A stretch of 64,000 nt of DNA from a virus: positions 16,162 to 80,161 of the IMG/VR virus record IMGVR_UViG_3300008120_010803. One strand, written 5' to 3'. Positions 2,138 to 64,000 of this stretch are shown here, one piece after another; within the stretch, counting starts at the first letter, position 1, and each line of letters opens with the position of its first letter. The notes under the pieces were generated by a model. The model was not told the DNA's origin. It did not search any database and saw nothing but the letters and a program-made list of their open reading frames with translations. Made by a program: the position numbers and the translations under genes.

Positions 2138-4490
2138 GGGATTTCCTCCCTCCAACACAATCAGTCCTTCGGTAAGAATTACCGAAAAAGATTTAAGCTT
2201 CGTGCCAACCACACCAAGTTTGAACCGTATAGGTTTAGTTGGGTTTGCCTCGAAGGGGCCAATCAATACACCAACAACCATTACCACACTAACACAACTC
2301 GCAAACATATTTGGCAACCCACACCCAGAGTCTGGCGATCCCTATCTTGTTTACGCTGCCCAACTTGCCTTGCAAGTAAGCAACGAGGTAGTGATTGTTC
2401 GTGTTGCTGATACCAATATTGCAAGTCCAACCTATGCCGAGACTGCCAGCGCTCCTATTCTGCCAGCAGGCCAAGTTATTAGCGTCTATTCCGCAACCTC
2501 TCCAGTTGGCAACTCAATCACTTTTGCTGACGATGCTTTCTTCCGCTGGAAGCTGAATGGTGTCCTAGCTGCAAAAACCTTGGTTGTTTTGGCTGGAACC
2601 TATTCAACAAGCACTTTGGTTGACGAACTTAATAGTCAGCTAGACTATGCTGTCGATGGAATCGAGTTCTTCGTACAAGGTACCGGATACCCAACTGTTG
2701 GAATTAAAACTACTTGGGCTTATGGTCCTAGCGCAGTTCTAGAGTTTGTCAGCGTACAAAACATGCTTGTTGGTCCCGGTAGTCCTGTCTACTTGGGTGA
2801 GGACATGGAGCCTGCCGTTCTTACCGGCACAGCCGTCCAATTCCCTGATGATGGTTCTTCCACATCCCCAGACACTTGGGACTTCAGCACACTTACCAGC
2901 TTGACACTACAGGTTGTTGTTCAAGGCACAGACAATGTGAACATCGATGATGTTGTTCAAGTTGTTGACCTAGCAACCCTCTTGTCAGGTGGCCCTTACA
3001 CCACCCAAGATGTAGTTGATGAAATTAACAACTACATCACAGCTGAACTCCCCGGAGGATTTGAAGCTGTTACAGAAGGTGGCTACAACATAATACTAAA
3101 AACTCTAACTTTCGGTAGAGATGCCAAGATTAGCGTTAAGCCTGCCAGCACCGGAGATGTAGTCTTTGGTATGTCAAATAACATTCAGTCTGGTGTTTCT
3201 CCCAGCACAAGTTCCGATGCAGTCGGCGCTTATACAGCTGGCATCTTCACCGGCCCAACAGCTGCCGGAACTACTCCAACATTCACAGTTCTAGCTGATT
3301 CCCCCGGTCAAGATGGCAACAGCACTAGCGTAGTCATCACCAACGAAACTGGTGGAACTTTCAATATTCAGGTCTACAACAACTCAAATCCTGTTGAGGC
3401 TTGGGGCAACCTAACTAAGAATGAGATGTCCCAATACTATGTTGGAACCTACTTGGCATTAGTGAGCGATTACATCAAAGTCACAGACAACACTACCATC
3501 TCTGCCCCTCCAGTAAACAGCCCAGCAACTGGTGTTGCTTTGTCTGGTGGAACCGATGGTATTCCAACTGATCCAGATGCTCAAGATGCTCTCTTGATAG
3601 GAAGCCCTGTTGCATACACAGGATTATATTCCTTGTCTGAGCCAGAGCAAATTGATATTGATCTAGTTGCAGTCCCCGGACACTCCTCAACAAGTGTTGT
3701 AGTGGCTCTACTGAATCTCTGCCAAAATCTCAGACAGGATTGCTTGGCAATCGTTGATCCTCCTCTTGGTCTCACACCACAGGAAATCATAGACTGGCAA
3801 AATGGTGTTCATCCACTTAACACCGTCCGATTTGACTCTGACTTTGGCGCACTTTACTGGCCTTGGGTCAAGATTCGTGACACTTACAACAATCTAGATG
3901 TTTGGGTTCCACCTAGTGGTGCCGTATTAGCAACAATCGCCAGAAGTGACAGCTTGTCATTCCCATGGTTTGCACCAGCCGGTGTAAACAGAGGTGTTGT
4001 TCCCGGCATCACAGATGTCTACTCTCAACCAACTCTAACAGAGAGAGACTTGATGTATGGCAACAGAAATGCAATCAACCCAATTATCACCTATCCCGAC
4101 ATCGATGGATTCTTAGTGTGGGGCCAAAAGACTCTACAACGCAGACCCACCGCTCTTGATAGAGTGAATGTAAGAAGATTGATGTTTTATCTTGAAAAGA
4201 ACATCAGAATTCAAAGTCGTTCCTTGCTGTTCGACCCACACACCGAGCAGTTGAGAGAGCGCTTTGTCGATCTTTGCAAGGGTATTCTTCAAAATGTAGT
4301 TACAAACCAAGGCATTTATGACTATGTCGTGAAATGTGATGCAGAATTGAATACTGCTGATGTAATCGACAGAAACGAAATGAGAGCCAGAATTGGCGTA
4401 CAGCCTGTAAAAGCAGCAGAGTTCATCTTCATCGAGTTCTCTTTGCACAGAACTGGCAGCTTTACTGAAAATACTGAGGTAGTTGTTTAA
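2124..4490 (+). CDS. contractile tail sheath protein (gp18-like)
   Basis: SPSVRITEKD N-terminus, GALYWPW, VPPSG, WFAPAGVNRG, WGQKTLQ, LDRVNVRRL, QPVKAAEFI; AGGAG SD. Confidence 0.97.
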   Translation: MAILKGFPPSNTISPSVRITEKDLSFVPTTPSLNRIGLVGFASKGPINTPTTITTLTQLANIFGNPHPESGDPYLVYAAQLALQVSNEVVIVRVADTNIASPTYAETASAPILPAGQVISVYSATSPVGNSITFADDAFFRWKLNGVLAAKTLVVLAGTYSTSTLVDELNSQLDYAVDGIEFFVQGTGYPTVGIKTTWAYGPSAVLEFVSVQNMLVGPGSPVYLGEDMEPAVLTGTAVQFPDDGSSTSPDTWDFSTLTSLTLQVVVQGTDNVNIDDVVQVVDLATLLSGGPYTTQDVVDEINNYITAELPGGFEAVTEGGYNIILKTLTFGRDAKISVKPASTGDVVFGMSNNIQSGVSPSTSSDAVGAYTAGIFTGPTAAGTTPTFTVLADSPGQDGNSTSVVITNETGGTFNIQVYNNSNPVEAWGNLTKNEMSQYYVGTYLALVSDYIKVTDNTTISAPPVNSPATGVALSGGTDGIPTDPDAQDALLIGSPVAYTGLYSLSEPEQIDIDLVAVPGHSSTSVVVALLNLCQNLRQDCLAIVDPPLGLTPQEIIDWQNGVHPLNTVRFDSDFGALYWPWVKIRDTYNNLDVWVPPSGAVLATIARSDSLSFPWFAPAGVNRGVVPGITDVYSQPTLTERDLMYGNRNAINPIITYPDIDGFLVWGQKTLQRRPTALDRVNVRRLMFYLEKNIRIQSRSLLFDPHTEQLRERFVDLCKGILQNVVTNQGIYDYVVKCDAELNTADVIDRNEMRARIGVQPVKAAEFIFIEFSLHRTGSFTENTEVVV

Positions 4491-15935: not shown

Positions 15936-17569
15936 GCTGTATTTATGCTCTCAGCCTTTCTCTTTGCTGCACTTTCCATCAATCCAATAAATAATGGAGA
16001 GGCACTTTGAAGCCTTGATTTGAATTCAGGATGGGCTTGTGTTCCTATGAAAAATGGATGAATTTCCTGATTTAACTCCATGATTTCAATTAGATTAGTT
16101 TCTGGGTTTCTTCCCGTCACTTTCATGCCCTTTTTTTCAAAACCTTGAACATTGATAATTTCATCGTTAACTTCATAACGATGCCGATGTCTTTCGTGTA
16201 TTGTCTTCTTTTTATATAAATCATATGCCAATGAATCTTTTGATAGCTCACAGGCATATGAGCCAAGTCTCATAGTCCCTGACTTCTTCGTGATTTTTTC
16301 TTGTCCCGGAATGTAATGAACGACAGGATGCTTTGTGTTCGGATCAAATTCCTCACTAGTAGCTTCATCCAATCCTAAGTGCCTAGCAAACTCAATAACA
16401 GCACATTGAAGACCTAAACAGATTCCTAAAAATGGTATCTTCTTTTCCCGTACATATTTAATCCCTTTTATCTTTCCCTCTACGCCACGAACATCAAATC
16501 CACCGGGAACAATTAGTCCGTCTATGTTTTCGAATAGCTTATTTAAGCACTTGGCATCTTTGCATGCCTCTGCTTCATCGGCATTTATCCATACTATTTC
16601 AGCTTTAACATTTTTGGCTACTGCTGCATGAAAAATGGCCTCTTTAAGGCTTAAATATGCCTCATCACAGTTATCGTATTTGTTCAGAACGGCAATTCTG
16701 ACAGTCGTTAATTCTTCATTACCGATATACTTTTCTACCAAGTCACGATATTTATGAATTCTGACTCCGTTTCGGGTAAGATGAAACTTGTCTATAATTA
16801 GATCATCAACATGTCGATTATAAAATTCTATTGGAACTTGATAAACAGATTTGACATCAGGAGCCTCGAATACTGCGGACCTTGGAACATTAGTTAAGTT
16901 TGAAATCTTGTCCATAATAGACTTTGGTATTTCACGGTCTGTTCTACAGAATAATATTTCTGGCTGTAGGCCAGAGCTTTGCATTTGTTGAACCGCTTGT
17001 TGAAATGGTTTGGTCTTGAACTCTTTAATAGTTGGAACCCACAAAACTGGTGCCACTAAAGAAATGATTACATCATTCCAATTTCTTTGTTTAAATTGCC
17101 TAATTGCCTCAAGGAACGGATATGATTCCGAATCGCCCACAGTCCCACCAATTTCGATTAAAACAATATCTGCATCTTTACCTAAGTCTAGCAATCTATT
17201 AATAATTTTATCAGTAACATGTGGAACTATTTGAACTGTTTGACCCAAGTATTTACCATTATCTTGTTCGTCTAGTATCTCTTTATATACAGTACCAGAA
17301 GTAAGTATGTTTTTTGAACTTACTTGGCAATTGATAATTCTTTCGTAGGTTCCAAGATCAAGGTCTGTTTCAGACCCATCGTCGCACAGAAACACCTCTC
17401 CGTGCTCTCTTGGAGCCAAAACACCAGCATTCGTGTTTAGATAGGGGTCGAACTTAATAGGGACTATTTTAAGGCCTCTTAATGACAATAAAAGTCCAAG
17501 GCTAGCTATTGAAACTCCCTTGCCAGTACCGCTAATAACACCACCGCAAACAACAATGTACTTGGCCAT
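15932..17569 (-). CDS. pyrG: CTP synthase
   Basis: GGVISGTGKG, DPYLN, ETDLDLG, EIGGTVGD, KTKP, PGGF, GICLGLQ, RHRHRYEVN, QAHPEF. Confidence 0.98.
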   Translation of the reverse strand: MAKYIVVCGGVISGTGKGVSIASLGLLLSLRGLKIVPIKFDPYLNTNAGVLAPREHGEVFLCDDGSETDLDLGTYERIINCQVSSKNILTSGTVYKEILDEQDNGKYLGQTVQIVPHVTDKIINRLLDLGKDADIVLIEIGGTVGDSESYPFLEAIRQFKQRNWNDVIISLVAPVLWVPTIKEFKTKPFQQAVQQMQSSGLQPEILFCRTDREIPKSIMDKISNLTNVPRSAVFEAPDVKSVYQVPIEFYNRHVDDLIIDKFHLTRNGVRIHKYRDLVEKYIGNEELTTVRIAVLNKYDNCDEAYLSLKEAIFHAAVAKNVKAEIVWINADEAEACKDAKCLNKLFENIDGLIVPGGFDVRGVEGKIKGIKYVREKKIPFLGICLGLQCAVIEFARHLGLDEATSEEFDPNTKHPVVHYIPGQEKITKKSGTMRLGSYACELSKDSLAYDLYKKKTIHERHRHRYEVNDEIINVQGFEKKGMKVTGRNPETNLIEIMELNQEIHPFFIGTQAHPEFKSRLQSASPLFIGLMESAAKRKAESINTA

Positions 17570-39086: not shown

Positions 39087-39132
39087 AAAAAACAAGGACT
39101 TCCGGTACAATGCCGGGAGTCCTTGTTTTTTT
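39087..39132 (+). terminator. intrinsic terminator after recA
   Basis: AACAAGGACTTCCGGTA-caa-TGCCGGGAGTCCTTGTT plus T-run. Confidence 0.85.
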
Positions 39133-48358: not shown

Positions 48359-48367
48359 TTGTTAAAT

Positions 48368-48404
48368 AAAAAAGCCCCCATAGAAATTCTATGGGGGCTT
48401 TTTT
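48368..48404. terminator. bidirectional intrinsic terminator
   Basis: AAAAAAGCCCCCATAGAA-a-TTCTATGGGGGCTTTTTT between convergent genes. Confidence 0.9.
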
Positions 48405-48417
48405 ATTTGTACTTGTA

Positions 48418-57642: not shown

Positions 57643-58455
57643 ATGAATCCTAAATTTTCTGTAGGCCAAAAAGTACGGTTTTCTAAACAAGATTGTACAG
57701 TTGAAAAGATTGGCCAAGGCCTAGATGGTTTGCCTAAGTATTATGTCAGGCCAGTAGATGTCGATCTTCCTATGTGGGTCTTGGAAAAAGATTTAAATTT
57801 TTCTAGTTCATTTTCGGTAAATCATAATATTTTCAACAAAAGAAATCCACATTTGCTTGTAGTTGACAATTTTTACAAAAATCCTGATGATATTAGAGGG
57901 ATGGCTCTTGAACAAGAGTTTCACGAAGACCTTCGTTGGTATAAGGGTAAAAGGACCACAGAAAGGTTTTTGTGGCCTTATTTAAAGGAAGAGTTTGAAA
58001 GACTTCTGGGTACACAAATTGAGGGCTGGCTGTTCCAGATTGCTAATGGCTGTTTCCAAATCACAGGTTTTCAAGACCCCTTGGTATACCATAGTGATGC
58101 TCAAAACTATGCAGCTGCAATATACTTAACACCTGATGCCCCTATAACTGCTGGCACAAGTTTCTGGAAAAGCAAGAAACATGGATGCCGTAGACCTCCA
58201 GCTAATCCACTAGAGTCGCACAAGTTTGCCAACCAAGAAGCGATTCAAAAAGCAGATTCAGAAATATACAATCAATATAATTTTGTACATCCAGATAATT
58301 GGGAGCTATGTGATAAGGTCGGCGCTGTTTATAATAGGTTAGCAATTTGGGATGCAAAGCTGATACATTCTGCCAGCACTTATGAGGGCTTATCTGTCGA
58401 AGATGCAAGTAAGGCCAGATTGGTTCAGCTTTTCTTTTTTAATATTGTTCAATGA
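57643..58455 (+). CDS. 2OG-Fe(II) oxygenase-like protein (DUF6445-like)
   Basis: VVDNFYKNPD, YKGKRT, HSD, IYLTP, GTSFW, YNRL, HSA, RLVQLFFF. Confidence 0.8.
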   Translation: MNPKFSVGQKVRFSKQDCTVEKIGQGLDGLPKYYVRPVDVDLPMWVLEKDLNFSSSFSVNHNIFNKRNPHLLVVDNFYKNPDDIRGMALEQEFHEDLRWYKGKRTTERFLWPYLKEEFERLLGTQIEGWLFQIANGCFQITGFQDPLVYHSDAQNYAAAIYLTPDAPITAGTSFWKSKKHGCRRPPANPLESHKFANQEAIQKADSEIYNQYNFVHPDNWELCDKVGAVYNRLAIWDAKLIHSASTYEGLSVEDASKARLVQLFFFNIVQ

Positions 58456-58472
58456 GTGCATTTTTAGGACAG

Positions 58473-58512
58473 AGCCAGAACCGTTAGATTTGTCTAATGG
58501 TTCTGGTTTTTT
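58473..58512 (+). terminator. intrinsic terminator
   Basis: AGCCAGAACCGTTAGA-tttg-TCTAATGGTTCTGGTT plus T-run. Confidence 0.85.
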
Positions 58513-58594
58513 CGTATATATTTTGATGAAAATTAATTTGCAAAACATGGTTGCATAGAAGTATACTTAAAGGAAACTGAAAGAGAGGTGACTT

Positions 58595-59776
58595 ATTCCT
58601 CGTAGAATAAATGAAGACCATAAAGAATTTCGAGATGTTGTTTCTGGTAAAATTCGTAAGGAGCTTAAAAAATTTATAAAATCGGGAAATATTTTTAGAA
58701 GCAGAGGGAAGAATGGGAAAATTTCAATTTCCATTCCAAAAATTGACATTCCACATATTGTTTTCGGTAACAACGGCACAGGTGTTGGACGAGGAGATGG
58801 AAAGCCGGGAGATGTTATCGGAAGAGATGATCCAAAGGGAAAAGGCAAAGGTAATAAAGCTGGCTCGGAAGAGGCAGAAGGCATCACAATCAGTTTAGAT
58901 TTGGAAGAAATTCTTAAATTCTTACAAGATGAATTGGAACTTCCTGATTTAAATCCGAAAGAAGATAATACTTTTGAAGATATAAAAATTAAATACAATA
59001 ATATTTCTTTAGTTGGCCCAGAGTCGCTTAGGCATACTAGAAGAACCATGCTTACTGCGTTGAAAAGAATGTGTAGCACGGGGGAAATCAATCAGTTGCA
59101 TCAAGTGCCGGGGTATAAAGACCCAGTTCGTTTGATTCTGCCAATTAATAGTGACAAGAGGTATAGACAATACAAAGAGATCAAAAACCCATCTACTAAT
59201 GCATTGATAATTTATGCAAGAGATGGAAGCGCCAGCATGGATACTGCAAAATGCGAAATAGTTTCAGATATGGCTTGGTGGATTGATGTATGGATAAAGA
59301 GATTTTATAAGCGTGTTGAAAGAATGTTTGTATGGCACGATACACAAGCACAAGAAGTTGACGAACAAAAATTTTACAAATATAGATTTGGTGGTGGAAC
59401 AGTTTGCAGTTCCTCACTAAAATTAATTGCCAAACAATTTGAAAATAGGTTCCCGCCAAATAAATGGAATATTTATGTGTTTTACTTTACCGATGGTGAA
59501 AATCAAATAAATGACAACGAAGTTTTTATTCAGACTTTGAAAAAAGAATTCCCTGAAAAAGTCGTCAATTTTGTTGGAATTACGCAGATTTTTGCATACG
59601 ACTATCGTGGATCAGTTTTGGAGGCAGTCAGAGATGCTAAAGAGGATGATACACTTGGTGAAAATATAAAGACGGCTGAAATAGAAAATTCTTCCTCCAA
59701 CCTAAGTGGTGAGGCAAGAAACGAGGCCGTTTTAAAAGCTATTAAAGACTTGCTTGGTAAAACAAAGATATCTTGA
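58595..59776 (+). CDS. yeaH: YeaH/YhbH (DUF444) VWA-like protein, ATT start
   Basis: Frame reads (M)PRRINEDHKEFRDVVSGKIR...IDIPHIVFG..GVGRGDG..GDVI continuously into the tracked ORF (ELELP, RDGSASM, GGTVCSS, YFTDGEN). Confidence 0.9.
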   Translation: MPRRINEDHKEFRDVVSGKIRKELKKFIKSGNIFRSRGKNGKISISIPKIDIPHIVFGNNGTGVGRGDGKPGDVIGRDDPKGKGKGNKAGSEEAEGITISLDLEEILKFLQDELELPDLNPKEDNTFEDIKIKYNNISLVGPESLRHTRRTMLTALKRMCSTGEINQLHQVPGYKDPVRLILPINSDKRYRQYKEIKNPSTNALIIYARDGSASMDTAKCEIVSDMAWWIDVWIKRFYKRVERMFVWHDTQAQEVDEQKFYKYRFGGGTVCSSSLKLIAKQFENRFPPNKWNIYVFYFTDGENQINDNEVFIQTLKKEFPEKVVNFVGITQIFAYDYRGSVLEAVRDAKEDDTLGENIKTAEIENSSSNLSGEARNEAVLKAIKDLLGKTKIS

Positions 59777-59783
59777 GGTTGCG

Positions 59784-61394
59784 ATGACTGACAAATTCAT
59801 GTATGGCTCTTCAATTCTGCAAGGGAGTGCTACCACTCCCGGTGTTTCTATACCACATGAATTGAAGGTTTTAATTCCAGATATTTTAAAGGCATGCACA
59901 GACTTCGGATTGGATTTCTATCCCACCGTGGTTCAAATGCTTACCTATGACGAAATTTCCGAAGTTGCAGCTTATGGAGGGTTTCCAGTAAGATATCCCC
60001 ATTGGCGTTGGGGTATGGAGTACGAAGAACTGCAACGAGGTTACATGTATGGAATGCATCGCATTTATGAAATGGTTCTCAATACAAATCCTTGCTACAT
60101 TTATTGCCTTAATAGCAATACCCTTCTTGATAATGTTACTGTTATTGCTCATGCTACTGGGCACAACCACTTTTTCAAGAATAACCACTATTTCAAACAC
60201 ACATCCCAGAATATGATTAATGAGCTAGCTAACCATGGCAGCAGAATCAGAAAGTATATGGCAAGGTGGGGGAAAGAAAAAGTAACTGAATTTATTGATA
60301 ATTTATTAAGAATCGAAACTTTGATTGATCCATCCAAAGCTTGGGAAACTAGACAAGTAAAAAATCCTATTGTTAGAGATGAAAGAAAATATCGTTATCC
60401 AAAAAGGATTAAAATAGACAAAGATAGAAATTATATGGAAGATTGGATCAATACAAAAGAATATATTAAGTCAGAGAAGTATCGTATTGAAAGAGAAGAA
60501 AAAATTGAAGATTTGGGAATACCCCGGTCTCCAGAAAGAGATATTTATGGATGGATAAAAGATAACTGCAATCTCAAGCCTTGGCAATCAGACATCATGA
60601 GTATGCTTTATGACGAAGCACACTATTTTGCTCCACAAGGCATGACAAAAATGGCGAATGAAGGATTTGCCAGCTATGTTGACTACCATTTGATAGCCAA
60701 ACAAGGGCTTTGTGCTTTGGGTCAAAAGAGTCATGATGAAGGAATTGTAGAGTATTCGATTCATAAGGCTGGTGTTCTTGGTGGTAAGTACAGTATGAAC
60801 CCATATAAGCTTGGGTTTAATTTGTTGATAGATATTGAGGAAAGATGGGATAAAGGAAGGTTTGGTTCTGATTACGACAATTGTGCTAGTTTCAAAGAAA
60901 AAGAAAACTGGGATTTGAAGCTTGGCGAGGGTAAAAATAAAGTTTTTGAAGTTGTAAAGATATATGATGATGTCAATTTGATCAATGAATTCTTTACTCA
61001 GGATTTTTGCGAAAAGTATCAGTTCTTTGAATGGAAAAAGTATCCTAATGGTGAAGTAGTAATTGAATCAAAGGATGCCAAGAAAATTAAGAAAAAGCTC
61101 ATTCAAAGATATTCCAACAGAGGTTTACCAGATATTAGGATGACCGACCACAATCATCTTGGTAGGAACATAATGCTTTTAGAGCATCAATGGGAAGGCA
61201 GAACTTTGTATATGCCGTACCTTGATGAAACTTTGAAATCATTAAATGCTGTTTCTGGCAAATCAGTTCTTCTGGTCACCAAAGATGAAAACCAAGAAGA
61301 ACTCATGTTTTATTGCGATGAGAATGACGGGTCAAATGTAATTCAATTGACAAGAGAACAGTATAAAAGGGAATTCGGTTTGACAAGAAGTTGA
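59784..61394 (+). CDS. spoVR: SpoVR/YcgB family protein
   Basis: GFPVRYPHWRWG, IYEMVLN.NPC, AHATGHNHFFKNN, YFAPQ..TKMANEGFAS, NPYKLG. Confidence 0.95.
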   Translation: MTDKFMYGSSILQGSATTPGVSIPHELKVLIPDILKACTDFGLDFYPTVVQMLTYDEISEVAAYGGFPVRYPHWRWGMEYEELQRGYMYGMHRIYEMVLNTNPCYIYCLNSNTLLDNVTVIAHATGHNHFFKNNHYFKHTSQNMINELANHGSRIRKYMARWGKEKVTEFIDNLLRIETLIDPSKAWETRQVKNPIVRDERKYRYPKRIKIDKDRNYMEDWINTKEYIKSEKYRIEREEKIEDLGIPRSPERDIYGWIKDNCNLKPWQSDIMSMLYDEAHYFAPQGMTKMANEGFASYVDYHLIAKQGLCALGQKSHDEGIVEYSIHKAGVLGGKYSMNPYKLGFNLLIDIEERWDKGRFGSDYDNCASFKEKENWDLKLGEGKNKVFEVVKIYDDVNLINEFFTQDFCEKYQFFEWKKYPNGEVVIESKDAKKIKKKLIQRYSNRGLPDIRMTDHNHLGRNIMLLEHQWEGRTLYMPYLDETLKSLNAVSGKSVLLVTKDENQEELMFYCDENDGSNVIQLTREQYKREFGLTRS

Positions 61395-61459
61395 TAAATT
61401 AAAATTTTACTACTGCTCACTAGATAGATTATGAAAAGCTAATCTATTTGAGGTGGGTT

Positions 61460-62455
61460 GTGGCGCAAGGTAAAAAATATGATCAAGATTTTGTTGTCAA
61501 AGTTTTTGAAGATGCTGGGTGCAAATTATTGGACAGGTATTGTAATGCAAAAAATAAATTAAAATATATTTGTGTTTGCAGAAATATTTCTTATATAAAA
61601 CTAAGTAATTTTATGCAAGGAGGCAGATGTAAAAATTGTTTAAAAAATAAATTCAAACTTAAATATGACTATGTCAAAAAATTTTTTGAAGATAGGAACT
61701 GTTATCTTCTAAGTGAAAATTACATAAATGCCAGAGCTAAATTAGATTATATTTGTGAGTGTGGCAATAAATCTAAAATAGTATTTGATAGTTTTAGAAA
61801 AGGTAATAGATGCAAAAAATGTGGTAACATAAAAAATTCAAAGAAGCAAACTTTATCACAAGATCAAGTTGCAAAATTTTTCAAAGATCAAGGATGCAAA
61901 TTAATTGGCTTATATAAAAAAGCAAGACTGCCAGTAGAATTTATTTGTAAATGCGGACAGAATCATAAAAAAACTTTAAATAATTTCCAAAAAGTTCCTA
62001 GGTGTCCTGCTTGTTCTTTGTTAGGAAGAAGTGGTTCTCATCATTATGAATGGATATCTGATCGTGAAAAGAAAAGGACTAATGATTTGTTTAGACAGAA
62101 ATGCAGATCGATGATTAACATTTGCATAAGATATTTAAAAATAAATAAAAACAAAAAAACAAAAGAATTGTTGGGCTATACCGCTGTGCAACTACGGGAA
62201 CACATATTTAATCACAAAAACTGGCATAAATTAATAGGAAAAAAATGGCACCTTGATCATATTTTTCCTATTAAAGCATTTTTAGACTATGGCATTAGAG
62301 ACATTAAATTAATTAATTGTTTGGAAAATTTACAGCCATTGACAGTTGTTGAGAACTGTGTTAAAAATGACAACTATGATGCCTGTGCTTTTGAAAACTG
62401 GCTTCAATCAAAAGGTTTTAAGGTAAAATCATGTCCAACCAAGGGTCAAGTGTGA
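61460..62455 (+). CDS. free-standing HNH homing endonuclease with three Cys-rich DNA-binding repeats
   Basis: 3x (F...GC.L....Y......L.YIC.CG......F..G.RC..C) then WHLDHIFP...NCLENLQPL...EN..K; GTG start with GAGGTG SD. Confidence 0.88.
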   Translation: MAQGKKYDQDFVVKVFEDAGCKLLDRYCNAKNKLKYICVCRNISYIKLSNFMQGGRCKNCLKNKFKLKYDYVKKFFEDRNCYLLSENYINARAKLDYICECGNKSKIVFDSFRKGNRCKKCGNIKNSKKQTLSQDQVAKFFKDQGCKLIGLYKKARLPVEFICKCGQNHKKTLNNFQKVPRCPACSLLGRSGSHHYEWISDREKKRTNDLFRQKCRSMINICIRYLKINKNKKTKELLGYTAVQLREHIFNHKNWHKLIGKKWHLDHIFPIKAFLDYGIRDIKLINCLENLQPLTVVENCVKNDNYDACAFENWLQSKGFKVKSCPTKGQV

Positions 62456-63852
62456 AGATAGTAGGTTTTGAACACCTACATCTTCACACAGACATACTGC
62501 CCCCGGCATAATTTAATGCCGGGGGCGCAAAAAACTATAGTCTTTTAGATGGATTTGGCCAAGTTGAAGAATACGCAGAGCATTGGCACCACCATGGTCA
62601 GTTTCTCTGCATAAGTGATCATGGCATGCTCGGTGCTGTTCCCAGACAAGTAAAAGCTTGTGAACAAATTTGTGAACAACACGGAAAAAATAAGCTTAGT
62701 GCAATTTTTGCCTGTGAGTTATATGTCAACCGCATGCACTCCGAGCCTACTCCTGATGAAGAGAGTAGAAAGAAATTCATGGACCAACTTGGTCCTGAAG
62801 AGCTTGAAGAATTCAAAGTAAAAGGCAGTCACTTACTTGCGATTGCCACATCTAAACAAGGTTATTCCAATCTTGTTCAATTATCATCTTATGGTTTTCT
62901 GAAGGGTTTCTATGCGAAACCCCGTGTAAACTATGAGATGCTTCAAAAACATAAAGAAGGATTGATTTTTACATCTTGCTGTTATGCAAGTGAAATAGGC
63001 AGAACATTCGATAAAAAAGGGGAGGAAGCAGCTGAAGAAGTTTTAGTAAGATATATCAACATGTTCAAAGGTCAGTTTTACTTAGAAATTATGATGTTGG
63101 ATTTCAAAAAGCAAAAACCATATGATGTTTTCATTTTGAAAATGAAAGATAAGTATAATCTTCCAATTATTCTTACTAACGACTGCCATTATTGCAAACA
63201 GGAAGATAGTCATTATCAAAGATTGATGCTGATGATTCAGACAAAAAGAACTTTGCCAGAAATACAAAAGATGATTGAAGAAAATGAAAATCAAGATTTT
63301 TTTGAACTCCAAGACAGTAATTTGTGGATGAAAACAGAAGAAGAGCTTAATGAGATGTGGCAAAAAAAATATAGTGATGTCATACCACTCGAAATATTTG
63401 AAGAAGCCAAGGCCACTACAGTTGCTATTTGTCAAAAAGCCAAGGGCGTTGAACTAGACAGAAGCATAAAATTTCCACTACAAGAGGAAGAAAAGAAAGC
63501 TCTAGCGCAGGCTGTCGCAGATGGATTGCGGTTTAGAAACATCAAGCCACAAGGGGAATACGGCAAACGAGTTGCGGAAGAATTTGATATAATCACACGA
63601 AAGGGGTTTGCTAGTTACTTTCTAGTCCAGAAGATGATGACCGATGAGGCCAGAAGAGTTTGTCCTGAGCTTTTGGGTTGGGGAGATGGAAGGGAGGCTG
63701 TTGGCCCCGGAAGAGGTTCTGGTGGTGGGTCTTTGATTCTTTATTTATTGGGTGTCACCGATGTTGATCCGATACGACATGGTTTGCTTTTCTCAAGATT
63801 TTTGAGCGAGGCTAGAGGTGGAAAACAAATTAAGTTAAAATTTTCAAATTAG
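62431..63852 (+). CDS. dnaE: DNA polymerase III alpha (DnaE) N-terminal part, interrupted by a 42-nt stop-containing insert
   Basis: FEHLHLHTD-[insert]-YSLLDG, SDHG, CELYV, HLLAIA, GFYAKPRV, TNDCHY, GFASYFL, GPGRGSGGGSL..YLLGVTDVDP, LLFSRFL; all one frame from ATG 62431. Confidence 0.93.
62494..62535 (+). other. 42-nt hairpin insertion with in-frame TAA (candidate translational bypass element)
   Basis: GCCCCCGGCAT-aattta-ATGCCGGGGGC 11-bp stem; TAA at 62509-62511. Confidence 0.85.
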
Positions 63853-63890
63853 GATAAAAATATACTATAATAGTTTAAAAGTAGGCTATT

Positions 63891-64000
63891 ATGTATATTT
63901 TCTTTGAAAAGCTTTTAAATCAAAAACAATGCGATGAATTGAATCAAGCTGCTCTCCGTATGATGATGGAGAATAGATTGAGTCATGAGGTCGATAACTC
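63891..64000 (+). CDS. partial ORF, not a DnaE continuation (possibly 2OG-Fe(II) oxygenase-like)
   Basis: MYIFFEKLLNQKQCDELN..., runs off the window; own TATAAT at 63866. Confidence 0.45.
   Translation, partial: MYIFFEKLLNQKQCDELNQAALRMMMENRLSHEVDN

Follow-up and report, generated by a model that had tools for sequence, protein, structure and literature searches.

How does a phage make its replicative DNA polymerase when the polymerase gene is interrupted, within the codons of a metal-binding motif, by a GC-rich hairpin that carries a stop codon? This question is raised by dnaE, encoding the alpha subunit of DNA polymerase III (Pol III alpha), near the right end of a 64,000-nucleotide (nt) stretch of virus DNA. 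This stretch, referred to below as the window, is the final 64 kb (positions 16,162 to 80,161) of the 80,161-bp IMG/VR virus record IMGVR_UViG_3300008120_010803; since its CheckV completeness is only 15%, the record is considered to be a fragment of a jumbo phage. Comparison of the locus with its counterparts in about 65 related phages suggests that the 42 bases between the two coding pieces of dnaE are probably a non-coding gap that is skipped by translating ribosomes, i.e. a site of programmed translational bypass.

The features of the locus are collected in Table 1. The gap reads ATA CTG CCC CCG GCA TAA TTT AAT GCC GGG GGC GCA AAA AAC and is followed by YSLLDG in the frame of the first piece. 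The original prediction, made from the sequence of the window alone, had described an ATG at 62431 leading through MSNQGSSVKIVGFEHLHLHTD and 42 nt to YSLLDG in the same frame, with GCA occurring in frame both before the stop (62506-62508) and after the stem (62527-62529) and with GAC and AAC at the gap boundaries, and the sequence agrees with this description in every detail. The perfect 11-bp stem with a TAA at the top of its 5' arm was likewise found, consisting of 11 Watson-Crick pairs plus an additional closing U.G pair (arms at 62498-62509 and 62516-62527), with the TAA (62509-62511) spanning the stem top and the loop. The hairpin begins 5 nt past GAC and encloses GCA TAA. The local fold of the gap has an energy of -30.8 kcal/mol (z -5.1), equalled by none of 200 shuffled sequences, and the 11-mer stem arm is unique in the window (0.16 occurrences expected), with one more copy, containing one mismatch, in the 80-kb record. 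Uninterrupted relatives read HLHLHTD[YF]SLLDG at this place, and therefore the removal of exactly 42 nt (62494-62535) restores the family motif, as had been predicted for the canonical DnaE start.

Table 1. Coordinates of the features at the interrupted dnaE locus, numbered from the first base of the window
Feature	Position	Strand	Basis or remark
Free-standing HNH-type homing-endonuclease gene, 335 amino acids	61448..62455	+	PHROG 559 'HNH endonuclease', E 6e-24; phrog_681, E 1e-18
Shine-Dalgarno (SD)-like AAGG	62420..62423	+	7 nt 5' of ATG 62431; sequence
First coding piece of dnaE, 21 codons, MSNQGSSVKIVGFEHLHLHTD	62431..62493	+	Encodes the PHP-domain metal ligands HxH
5' stem-loop, about 19 pairs	62445..62493	+	3' arm extends up to the final base of GAC 62491-62493
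GAC, candidate take-off codon of an exact 42-nt hop	62491..62493	+	End of the 5' stem-loop coincides with the canonical motif junction
Coding gap, 42 nt	62494..62535	+	Homologous gaps of relatives: 40, 41 and 42 nt
Gap hairpin, GC-rich stem of 12 pairs, loop AATTTA	62498..62527	+	Fold and covariation
GCA TAA, alternative take-off codon with in-frame stop behind it	62506..62511	+	Sequence, path enumeration
Variable tail GCAAAAAAC	62527..62535	+	Two candidate landing triplets: GCA 62527-62529 and AAC 62533-62535
Second coding piece of dnaE, 438 codons and TAG 63850-63852	62536..63852	+	Pfam PF02811, 1e-26; PF07733, 8e-22

The remainder of the PHP domain is encoded by the second piece, as are the first 98 positions of the Pol III alpha core. 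This piece stops at the point where the N-parts of all relatives end, because dnaE is split into two genes in these related phages. The N-part ends about 10-30 residues past SEARGG(K/R), at position 98 of PF07733 (window 63800-63852; loci L099-L108), and the second dnaE open reading frame (ORF), located 1.6-13 kb downstream, has its own leader of about 80 amino acids (aa) followed by positions 100-259 including PDVDVDY. No intein halves were visible at the split, and the contig of the window stops 148 nt past the N-part.

The 42-nt insert is real DNA and not an artefact of assembly. The original prediction had proposed that reads be searched for it, and 98-100% of the sampled words of 62250-62850 were found in 16 public metagenome runs, namely all sampled 31-mers in 14 runs and 98% of them in 2 more. 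These runs, dated 2017-2025, carry freshwater, lake or 'fungus metagenome' labels, mainly the first two, and the source sample may be among them. A 17,750-nt contig from one of the lake runs has no differences to the window sequence. A blastn search of the region against GenBank phages gave no match.

A protein-guided scan of IMG/VR yielded 63 related dnaE loci (numbered with the prefix L; 49-90% aa identity), whose 5' ends were read; the genomes examined are fragments, 14-52% complete. Five states were distinguished at the motif, the fifth being the group I introns described further below: A) 20 distinct sequences are uninterrupted and read GFEHLHLH[TS]D[FY]S[LV]LDG. B) 14 distinct sequences with 12 distinct gaps have a stop (TAG, once TGA) right after the third His codon, followed by 2-5 bases, so that the gaps are 5, 6, 7 or 8 nt long. 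C) Hairpin gaps follow the Asp codon in the window and L097 (42 nt each), L060, L088 and L019 (40 nt), L010 (41 nt) and L021 (40 nt, with a hairpin sequence unrelated to the others), and two additional tail variants of the 42-nt form were found in read contigs. D) CTT TAA CTT, CTT TAA CTA or CTC TAA CTT lies inside S-V-L|L-D-G in L040, L044 and L045 (at about 2990-3000 of each locus), which by its matched Leu codons appears to be a textbook candidate for a six-base hop. The first pieces of the relatives likewise begin with an SD sequence and ATG, and the tails of their hairpin gaps are GCAAGAA, GCAAAAGAA, GCAATCGAA and GCAATTTTT. Thus variable hairpin inserts of 40, 41 and 42 nt, which the original prediction had suggested looking for by alignment, do occur at this same site in related phages. 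The gap lengths span all three frames, those of 5-8 nt doing so among nearly identical sister genes, and no solution other than exact skipping recovers the motif throughout.

Pattern scans of IMG/VR did not detect the hairpin in genes other than dnaE. Among the 25 loci matching the hairpin pattern, 3 were dnaE gaps, and the others were dropped as unrelated GC-rich terminator hairpins in other phages. With a broader junction pattern applied to IMG/VR and JGI metagenomes, L097 was the sole new variant; L094 and L096 proved to be repeats of L021 and L010, respectively, and L095 a chance match. A maximum-likelihood tree of the 438-residue part showed the gap states interspersed among very close relatives: L018 (A) groups with L020 (B), L043 (A) with L039, L041, L042 and L046 (B) and L045 (D), L019 (C) falls within the clade of L008 (B), and the window (C) groups with L004 (A). 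Gapped genes occur in at least 7 separate clades of this tree.

Group I introns are present at the same motif in L047-49 and L059 (Rfam RF00028, 91-102 bits), and the PHP motif is a homing hot spot. Those at L047:2767-2992 and L059:2769-2996 (91 and 102 bits) lie a few codons from the gap site, and L059 has an HNH homologue upstream in addition to its intron. Other observations on these dnaE loci include intein-like inserts deeper in the genes of L053 and L063 (…VHNC and …VSNC junctions), an 843-aa N-part ORF in L050, probably with another insert, and a full-length transfer-messenger RNA gene (L047:6703-7061; RF00023, 112 bits) that lies within a few kb of dnaE on the contig of a related jumbo phage.

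The gapped genes also differ from the ungapped ones in RNA structure. When the 60 nt ending two codons past HLHLH were folded, the 5' stem-loop was found in all 20 distinct sequences of states B and C (-19.6 to -29.1 kcal/mol), whereas none of the 20 distinct state A sequences has it even though they encode the same peptide (-4.6 to -14.0 kcal/mol; Mann-Whitney p 7e-8), and all 7 sister contrasts on the tree go in the same direction. State D and the intron carriers do not have this stem-loop. Its stem pairs codons of an N-terminal extension (..QVKI, ..KVEI, ..SVKI) with the HLHLH(TD) codons, and the extension arm swaps K and E, following synonymous Leu changes on the HLHLH arm. In RNAalifold alignments, changes on both sides with pairing retained were seen at 3 of 15 pairs in state B and 7 of 32 in state C. 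In state B the last codon covered by the 3' arm is the His codon that precedes the stop, in state C it is the Asp codon, and therefore the stem register shifts by 6 nt along with the junction. The hairpin within the gap covaries at its top (CAU/AUG, UA/UA and CAG/CUG) and contains G.U pairs in L010, which point to a structural role of the sequence at the RNA level. Folded together (62425-62560), the two stem-loops of the window reach -56.6 kcal/mol (z -8.7).

Several short-gap loci (L008, L015, L037 and others) contain an in-frame AAAGGAG located about 36-40 nt upstream of the stop, immediately 5' to the stem-loop and 5-10 nt ahead of an in-frame ATG or GTG buried in the stem; it could serve as an internal start or as a bypass-stimulating SD. 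Its counterpart in the window is the SD-like AAGGG at 62441-62445, at the 5' foot of the 5' stem-loop.

The interrupted genes have kept the features expected of a joined protein. All nine metal ligands of the PHP domain are conserved, two of them being His residues of the 21-codon first piece, and the seven downstream ligands (D, H, E, H, C, D and H) show no change among 18 distinct gapped genes, just as in the ungapped ones. Among the gapped genes the HLHLH codons differ only synonymously. These patterns suggest that the joined dnaE product is under purifying selection. The original prediction had named an intact second dnaE N-terminus as a finding that would speak against it, and no second PHP domain or dnaE N-terminus was seen in the 80-kb record or on the contigs of five relatives (69-225 kb), all of them incomplete.

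Insert-bearing sequences were also found in RNA libraries. The RNA runs contained only small portions of the stretch. Metatranscriptome contigs from two studies (X17; X18 and X19), which come from relatives of this phage and cover only 62424-62576, include both coding pieces and the entire hairpin between them, free of gaps and joints; X17 is an L060-like 40-nt form and X18/X19 the 42-nt form with the tail GCAAAAGAA. These contigs argue weakly against splicing.

The gene next to the interruption offers a possible route by which it was acquired. The HNH endonuclease gene, for which a Pfam search gave no match, sits between a SpoVR-like gene and dnaE; its final 25 nt overlap the start of dnaE out of frame, and its stop lies within the 5' arm of the 5' stem-loop. 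In ungapped relatives the neighbour of dnaE on that side is an ORF of about 520-530 aa, SpoVR-like by size only. HNH homologues are located directly upstream of dnaE in L088, L060, L097, the L022 group, L050, L040, L059 and L004, with remnants at the same place in L054, L044, L045 and L046, so that an HNH gene or remnant accompanies 11 of 24 distinct gapped lineages vs 1 of 20 ungapped ones (Fisher p 0.003, uncorrected for phylogeny). The lone ungapped carrier, L004 (HNH gene at L004:344-1300), is the closest relative of the window (90% aa identity) and has the motif HLHCHSH-YSLLDG, in which Asp is changed to His; this change may be another escape from the nuclease, perhaps at the cost of a metal ligand. 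At ten gapped loci without an HNH homologue the upstream ORFs show no recognizable nuclease, and thus roughly one in two gapped genes lacks a visible endonuclease neighbour.

Between the window and L060, L088 or L097, the first piece and the gap are 88-97% identical, whereas identity drops to 66-79% in the flanks, formed by the nuclease gene upstream and by dnaE downstream; the corresponding values are 82-83% and 57-68% for L019 and L010. Beyond the 3' end of the gap the high conservation is lost. These data suggest that the gap arrived in a mobile cassette consisting of the HNH gene, a replacement 5' end of dnaE and the gap itself. The gap probably breaks the target site of the nuclease, which would protect the genome carrying it. 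Just upstream of the nuclease gene, at 57643-61391 of the window, are genes for DUF6445, DUF444 (YeaH-like) and SpoVR-like proteins, the latter two being a PrkA-operon-type pair carried by the phage.

If the gap is bypassed, the ribosome would translate the 21 codons of the first piece, melting the 5' stem-loop on the way, and would then be slowed by the GC-rich hairpin and the rare codons CTG CCC CCG. The peptidyl-tRNA would release the mRNA, and the 5' stem-loop, refolding behind the ribosome, would help the mRNA to slide forward. The gap hairpin would be passed over in its folded form, and decoding would resume at TAT 62536 to give HLHLHTD-YSLLDG. Of the options left side by side by the original prediction, bypass is the one favoured by the comparison of relatives, readthrough conflicts with the 40- and 41-nt gaps, which shift the frame, and a micro-intron conflicts with the gaps of 5-8 nt and with the RNA contigs that keep the insert.

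Two paths had been considered for the hop. By path enumeration, the exact path, with take-off at GAY (GAC in the window, landing on AAC) and resumption at a [YF] codon, fits all eight variants, whereas a hop from GCA to GCA or GCG fits six of the eight, failing in L019 and L021. The exact path agrees with the end of the 5' stem-loop as well as with the junctions of state B, in which 9 of the 12 distinct gaps end in xAY vs the take-off codon CAY (p 6e-5); in these short-gap relatives a stop (TAG or TGA) always directly follows the take-off codon. The landing triplet of the hairpin gaps equals GAY at two of three positions in 7 of 8 cases. We therefore lean, by a modest preference, towards the exact path from GAC to AAC over that from GCA 62506 to GCA 62527. 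A wider proposal, that the dnaE gaps from the short ones to the long hairpins form one bypass family working without cognate take-off and landing codons, can be offered only tentatively; its driver would be the 5' stem-loop ending on the take-off codon together with, in the long form, the hairpin passed while folded.

Several points weigh against bypass. On the exact path the codons are non-cognate (GAC vs AAC or GAA, and TTT in L097), near-cognate at best, and AUA, which would occupy the A site, is a codon that this phage uses commonly (23.5 per 1000), so that the path breaks two rules of the gene 60 homologues discussed below; because AUA is common, its action as a hungry-codon trigger was rejected. 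The gaps of L010 and L019 contain no in-frame stop. No mini-SD was found 5-7 nt before either landing triplet in the tail of the window, and L021, alone among the variants in having GGAG in its tail, has it overlapping the landing triplet. No tRNA genes were found in the window. Recent horizontal transfer, and not constraint, could account for part of the high nucleotide conservation of the first piece, and a second polymerase gene may exist elsewhere because the genomes are only 14-52% complete. The RNA contigs have a depth of 2-3, with DNA carry-over possible, and the two complete ones are from relatives. The support as a whole is comparative.

The alternative that survives best is the same bypass by the other path, in which the ribosome stalls on TAA after GCA 62506-62508 and the peptidyl-tRNA-Ala re-pairs at GCA 62527-62529 after a hop of 21 nt. 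The product would be HLHLHTD-ILPPA-KN-YSLLDG, with seven extra residues and the junction ...HTDILPPAKNYSLLDG in place of ...HTDYSLLDG. This path obeys the rules of gene 60, since it has matched codons and a stop right behind the take-off codon, as in T4 gene 60 and its homologues (10.1101/2022.08.31.505936). The match moreover survives frame changes, being GCA to GCA in the 42-nt forms and the 41-nt L010, and GCA to GCG, read by the same tRNA-Ala, in the 40-nt L060 and L088; judging from the positions, the 5' stem-loop (3' end at 62493) would have just left the ribosome with GCA in the P site. However, L019 has GTA at the stem top, no stop and no Val landing codon, and L021 has CAG TAG and no Gln landing codon, both genes being otherwise intact, while in L010 the codon behind GCA is GAA and not a stop. 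The seven residues would lengthen a metal-binding loop that is of constant length in all relatives, the 5' stem-loop stops at GAC, short of GCA, and the folded gap hairpin would have no role. We thus regard the GCA path as unlikely, though still a serious competitor.

Less probable still is that the pieces are not joined at all, i.e. that a peptide of 26 residues terminates at the TAA and DnaE restarts downstream (e.g. at ATG 62626), or that the N-terminal gene is decaying as a pseudogene, the hairpins serving only nuclease-gene regulation or cassette recombination. The joined protein is a comparative prediction, the stop of the HNH gene lies inside the 5' stem-loop so that the structure could regulate that gene, and part of the conservation of the first piece could represent DNA homology needed for homing. 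Against this, all nine PHP ligands are invariant across the 18 diverged gapped genes, the HLHLH codons undergo synonymous changes whereas the codons paired with them change amino acid, the gapped genes persist in those seven or more clades, and no second PHP domain is present on the six contigs, all from incomplete genomes. A restart is unlikely because no start codon lies between the stop and the following piece in the short-gap relatives and because starting at ATG 62626 deletes three PHP ligands.

Removal of the gap from the mRNA before translation, by a micro-intron or by a nuclease and a ligase, appears very improbable. RNA splicing does occur here in relatives, as the group I introns in the same motif of L047 and L059 indicate, and the strong structures flanking and filling the gap could be recognized by a nuclease. 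Nevertheless, 42 nt is far below the size of any self-splicing intron, the sister gaps of 5-8 nt cannot be introns, and the RNA-library contigs, although of low depth, keep the insert and include no joined form. An Rfam search of 58000-64000 gave nothing at an E value of 1 or less, and a micro-intron, a self-splicing or BHB intron or a known riboswitch is thus unsupported. Least credible of all is translation of the insert, by TAA readthrough adding 14 residues in the 42-nt form and by frameshifting on an A-run in the forms of 40 and 41 nt. In its favour, the insert of the window is in frame, and L019 and L010, without an in-frame gap stop, have AAAAAA where a +1/-1 slip would restore the frame, but the homologous 40- and 41-nt gaps (L060, L088, L019, L010 and L021) shift the frame so that readthrough is no general solution, L060, L088 and L021 have an in-frame stop and no A-run and would therefore need both readthrough and frameshifting, the tails vary (GCAAGAA, GCAATTTTT, GCAATCGAA), TAA is a normal stop here, ending 22 of 54 long ORFs, and the 5' stem-loop and the 5-8-nt gaps would be left unexplained, with 13-14 residues placed inside the metal-binding motif.

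Three further readings were rejected. An intrinsic terminator does not fit, as the stem is followed by GCAAAAAAC on the plus strand and AGTATGT on the minus strand, with no U-tract, and a terminator scan did not call the hairpin. Perfect palindromes composed of an A-run, a GC-stem and a T-run, which look like bidirectional terminators, are present at 48364-48408 and 39087-39131 of the window, whereas the dnaE hairpin has no T-run. Stop-codon reassignment was rejected because each of the three stops, TAA, TGA and TAG, terminates long ORFs. Finally, a multi-copy mobile element of GC-rich hairpins, similar to byps (see below) or miniature inverted-repeat transposable elements, was rejected, the hairpin being present in one copy in the 80-kb record and elsewhere only in dnaE.

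Very few natural cases of efficient programmed bypass are known: T4 gene 60 and its homologues, the yeast mitochondrial byps, and a candidate in the phage phiHau3. No description of a bypass in dnaE was found in a full-text literature search. The bypass of gene 60 within the MobA element was reportedly described by Huang in 1988 and Bonocora in 2011. The gene 60 system comprises a 50-nt translational bypass within a MobA HNH homing-endonuclease element, together with homologues in all of which take-off and landing codons are paired, and in nearly all of which a stop or hungry codon follows take-off; in the survey of this element it was found only in topoisomerase genes (bioRxiv 10.1101/2022.08.31.505936, Manning and Atkins). 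The dnaE locus resembles it in that i) a gap of tens of bases lies in an essential replication gene and has a co-varying stem-loop, ii) a stop lies within the stem-loop in the window and in 5 of 7 other variants, iii) the layout includes an upstream, overlapping, out-of-frame HNH gene and a cassette-borne N-terminal piece duplicating host-gene sequence, iv) the highly conserved stretch extends as far as the landing end of the gap and no further, and v) gain and loss among close relatives is patchy ('hit and run'). It differs in that i) the gap lies in the PHP motif of dnaE and not in a topoisomerase, without sequence similarity, ii) it is 21 codons from the start vs 46 in gene 60, iii) the 5' stem-loop, poorly conserved in gene 60 homologues, is strong, obligatory and ends at the take-off codon, iv) no mini-SD lies 5-7 nt before landing, v) take-off and landing codons are non-cognate on the path that fits all variants, and vi) short versions of 5-8 nt coexist in sister phages. 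The dnaE gap thus seems to resemble the gene 60/MobA cassette functionally without being a member of that element family.

The mitochondrial byp elements of Magnusiomyces capitatus are GC-rich hairpin inserts in an AT-rich genome, presumed to be mobile and bypassed by ribosomes. The dnaE insert is similarly a GC-rich hairpin of comparable size inside a conserved protein gene of an AT-rich genome. However, byps are present in dozens of copies per genome, whereas the dnaE hairpin occurs once in 80 kb and in no other IMG/VR genes, lies in a bacterial and not a mitochondrial translation system, and is tied to an HNH gene. The terminase gene of Streptomyces phage phiHau3 has two 10-nt gaps led by UUA, a short phage coding gap for which a 5' stem-loop and a flanking internal SD are proposed as stimulators (Antonov et al., RNA Biol 2023, PMC10732093). 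The counterparts of this SD in dnaE are AAGGG in the window and AAAGGAG at the same place in the short-gap relatives. In contrast to dnaE, the trigger in phiHau3 is a rare UUA codon tied to host physiology, the 10-nt gap has no internal hairpin, and no homing-endonuclease cassette was found in the passages of PMC10732093 consulted. The CTT TAA CTT/CTA sequences of L040, L044 and L045 in the PHP motif have exactly the form of the short stop-hops reported in E. coli, such as CUU UAG CUA (Weiss et al. 1987, as cited in PMC10732093). The latter were low-efficiency laboratory events, whereas the dnaE hop would be needed for the only visible replicative polymerase of the phage.

Gapped dnaE genes are split or discarded by gene callers, with the result that phage replication modules are mis-annotated. 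If the reading of the gap as a bypass site is true, a replicative polymerase that depends on a hop would provide a natural mutational series for the drivers of take-off, sliding and landing. The series would span gaps of 5-42 nt and co-varying stem-loops, and it would include forms that have stops or matched codons as well as forms that lack them. The finding would also mean that homing-endonuclease cassettes have recruited bypass more than once. If, in addition, the family does work with non-cognate codons, it would constitute a second, mechanistically distinct natural class of efficient bacterial bypass, represented by dozens of variants.

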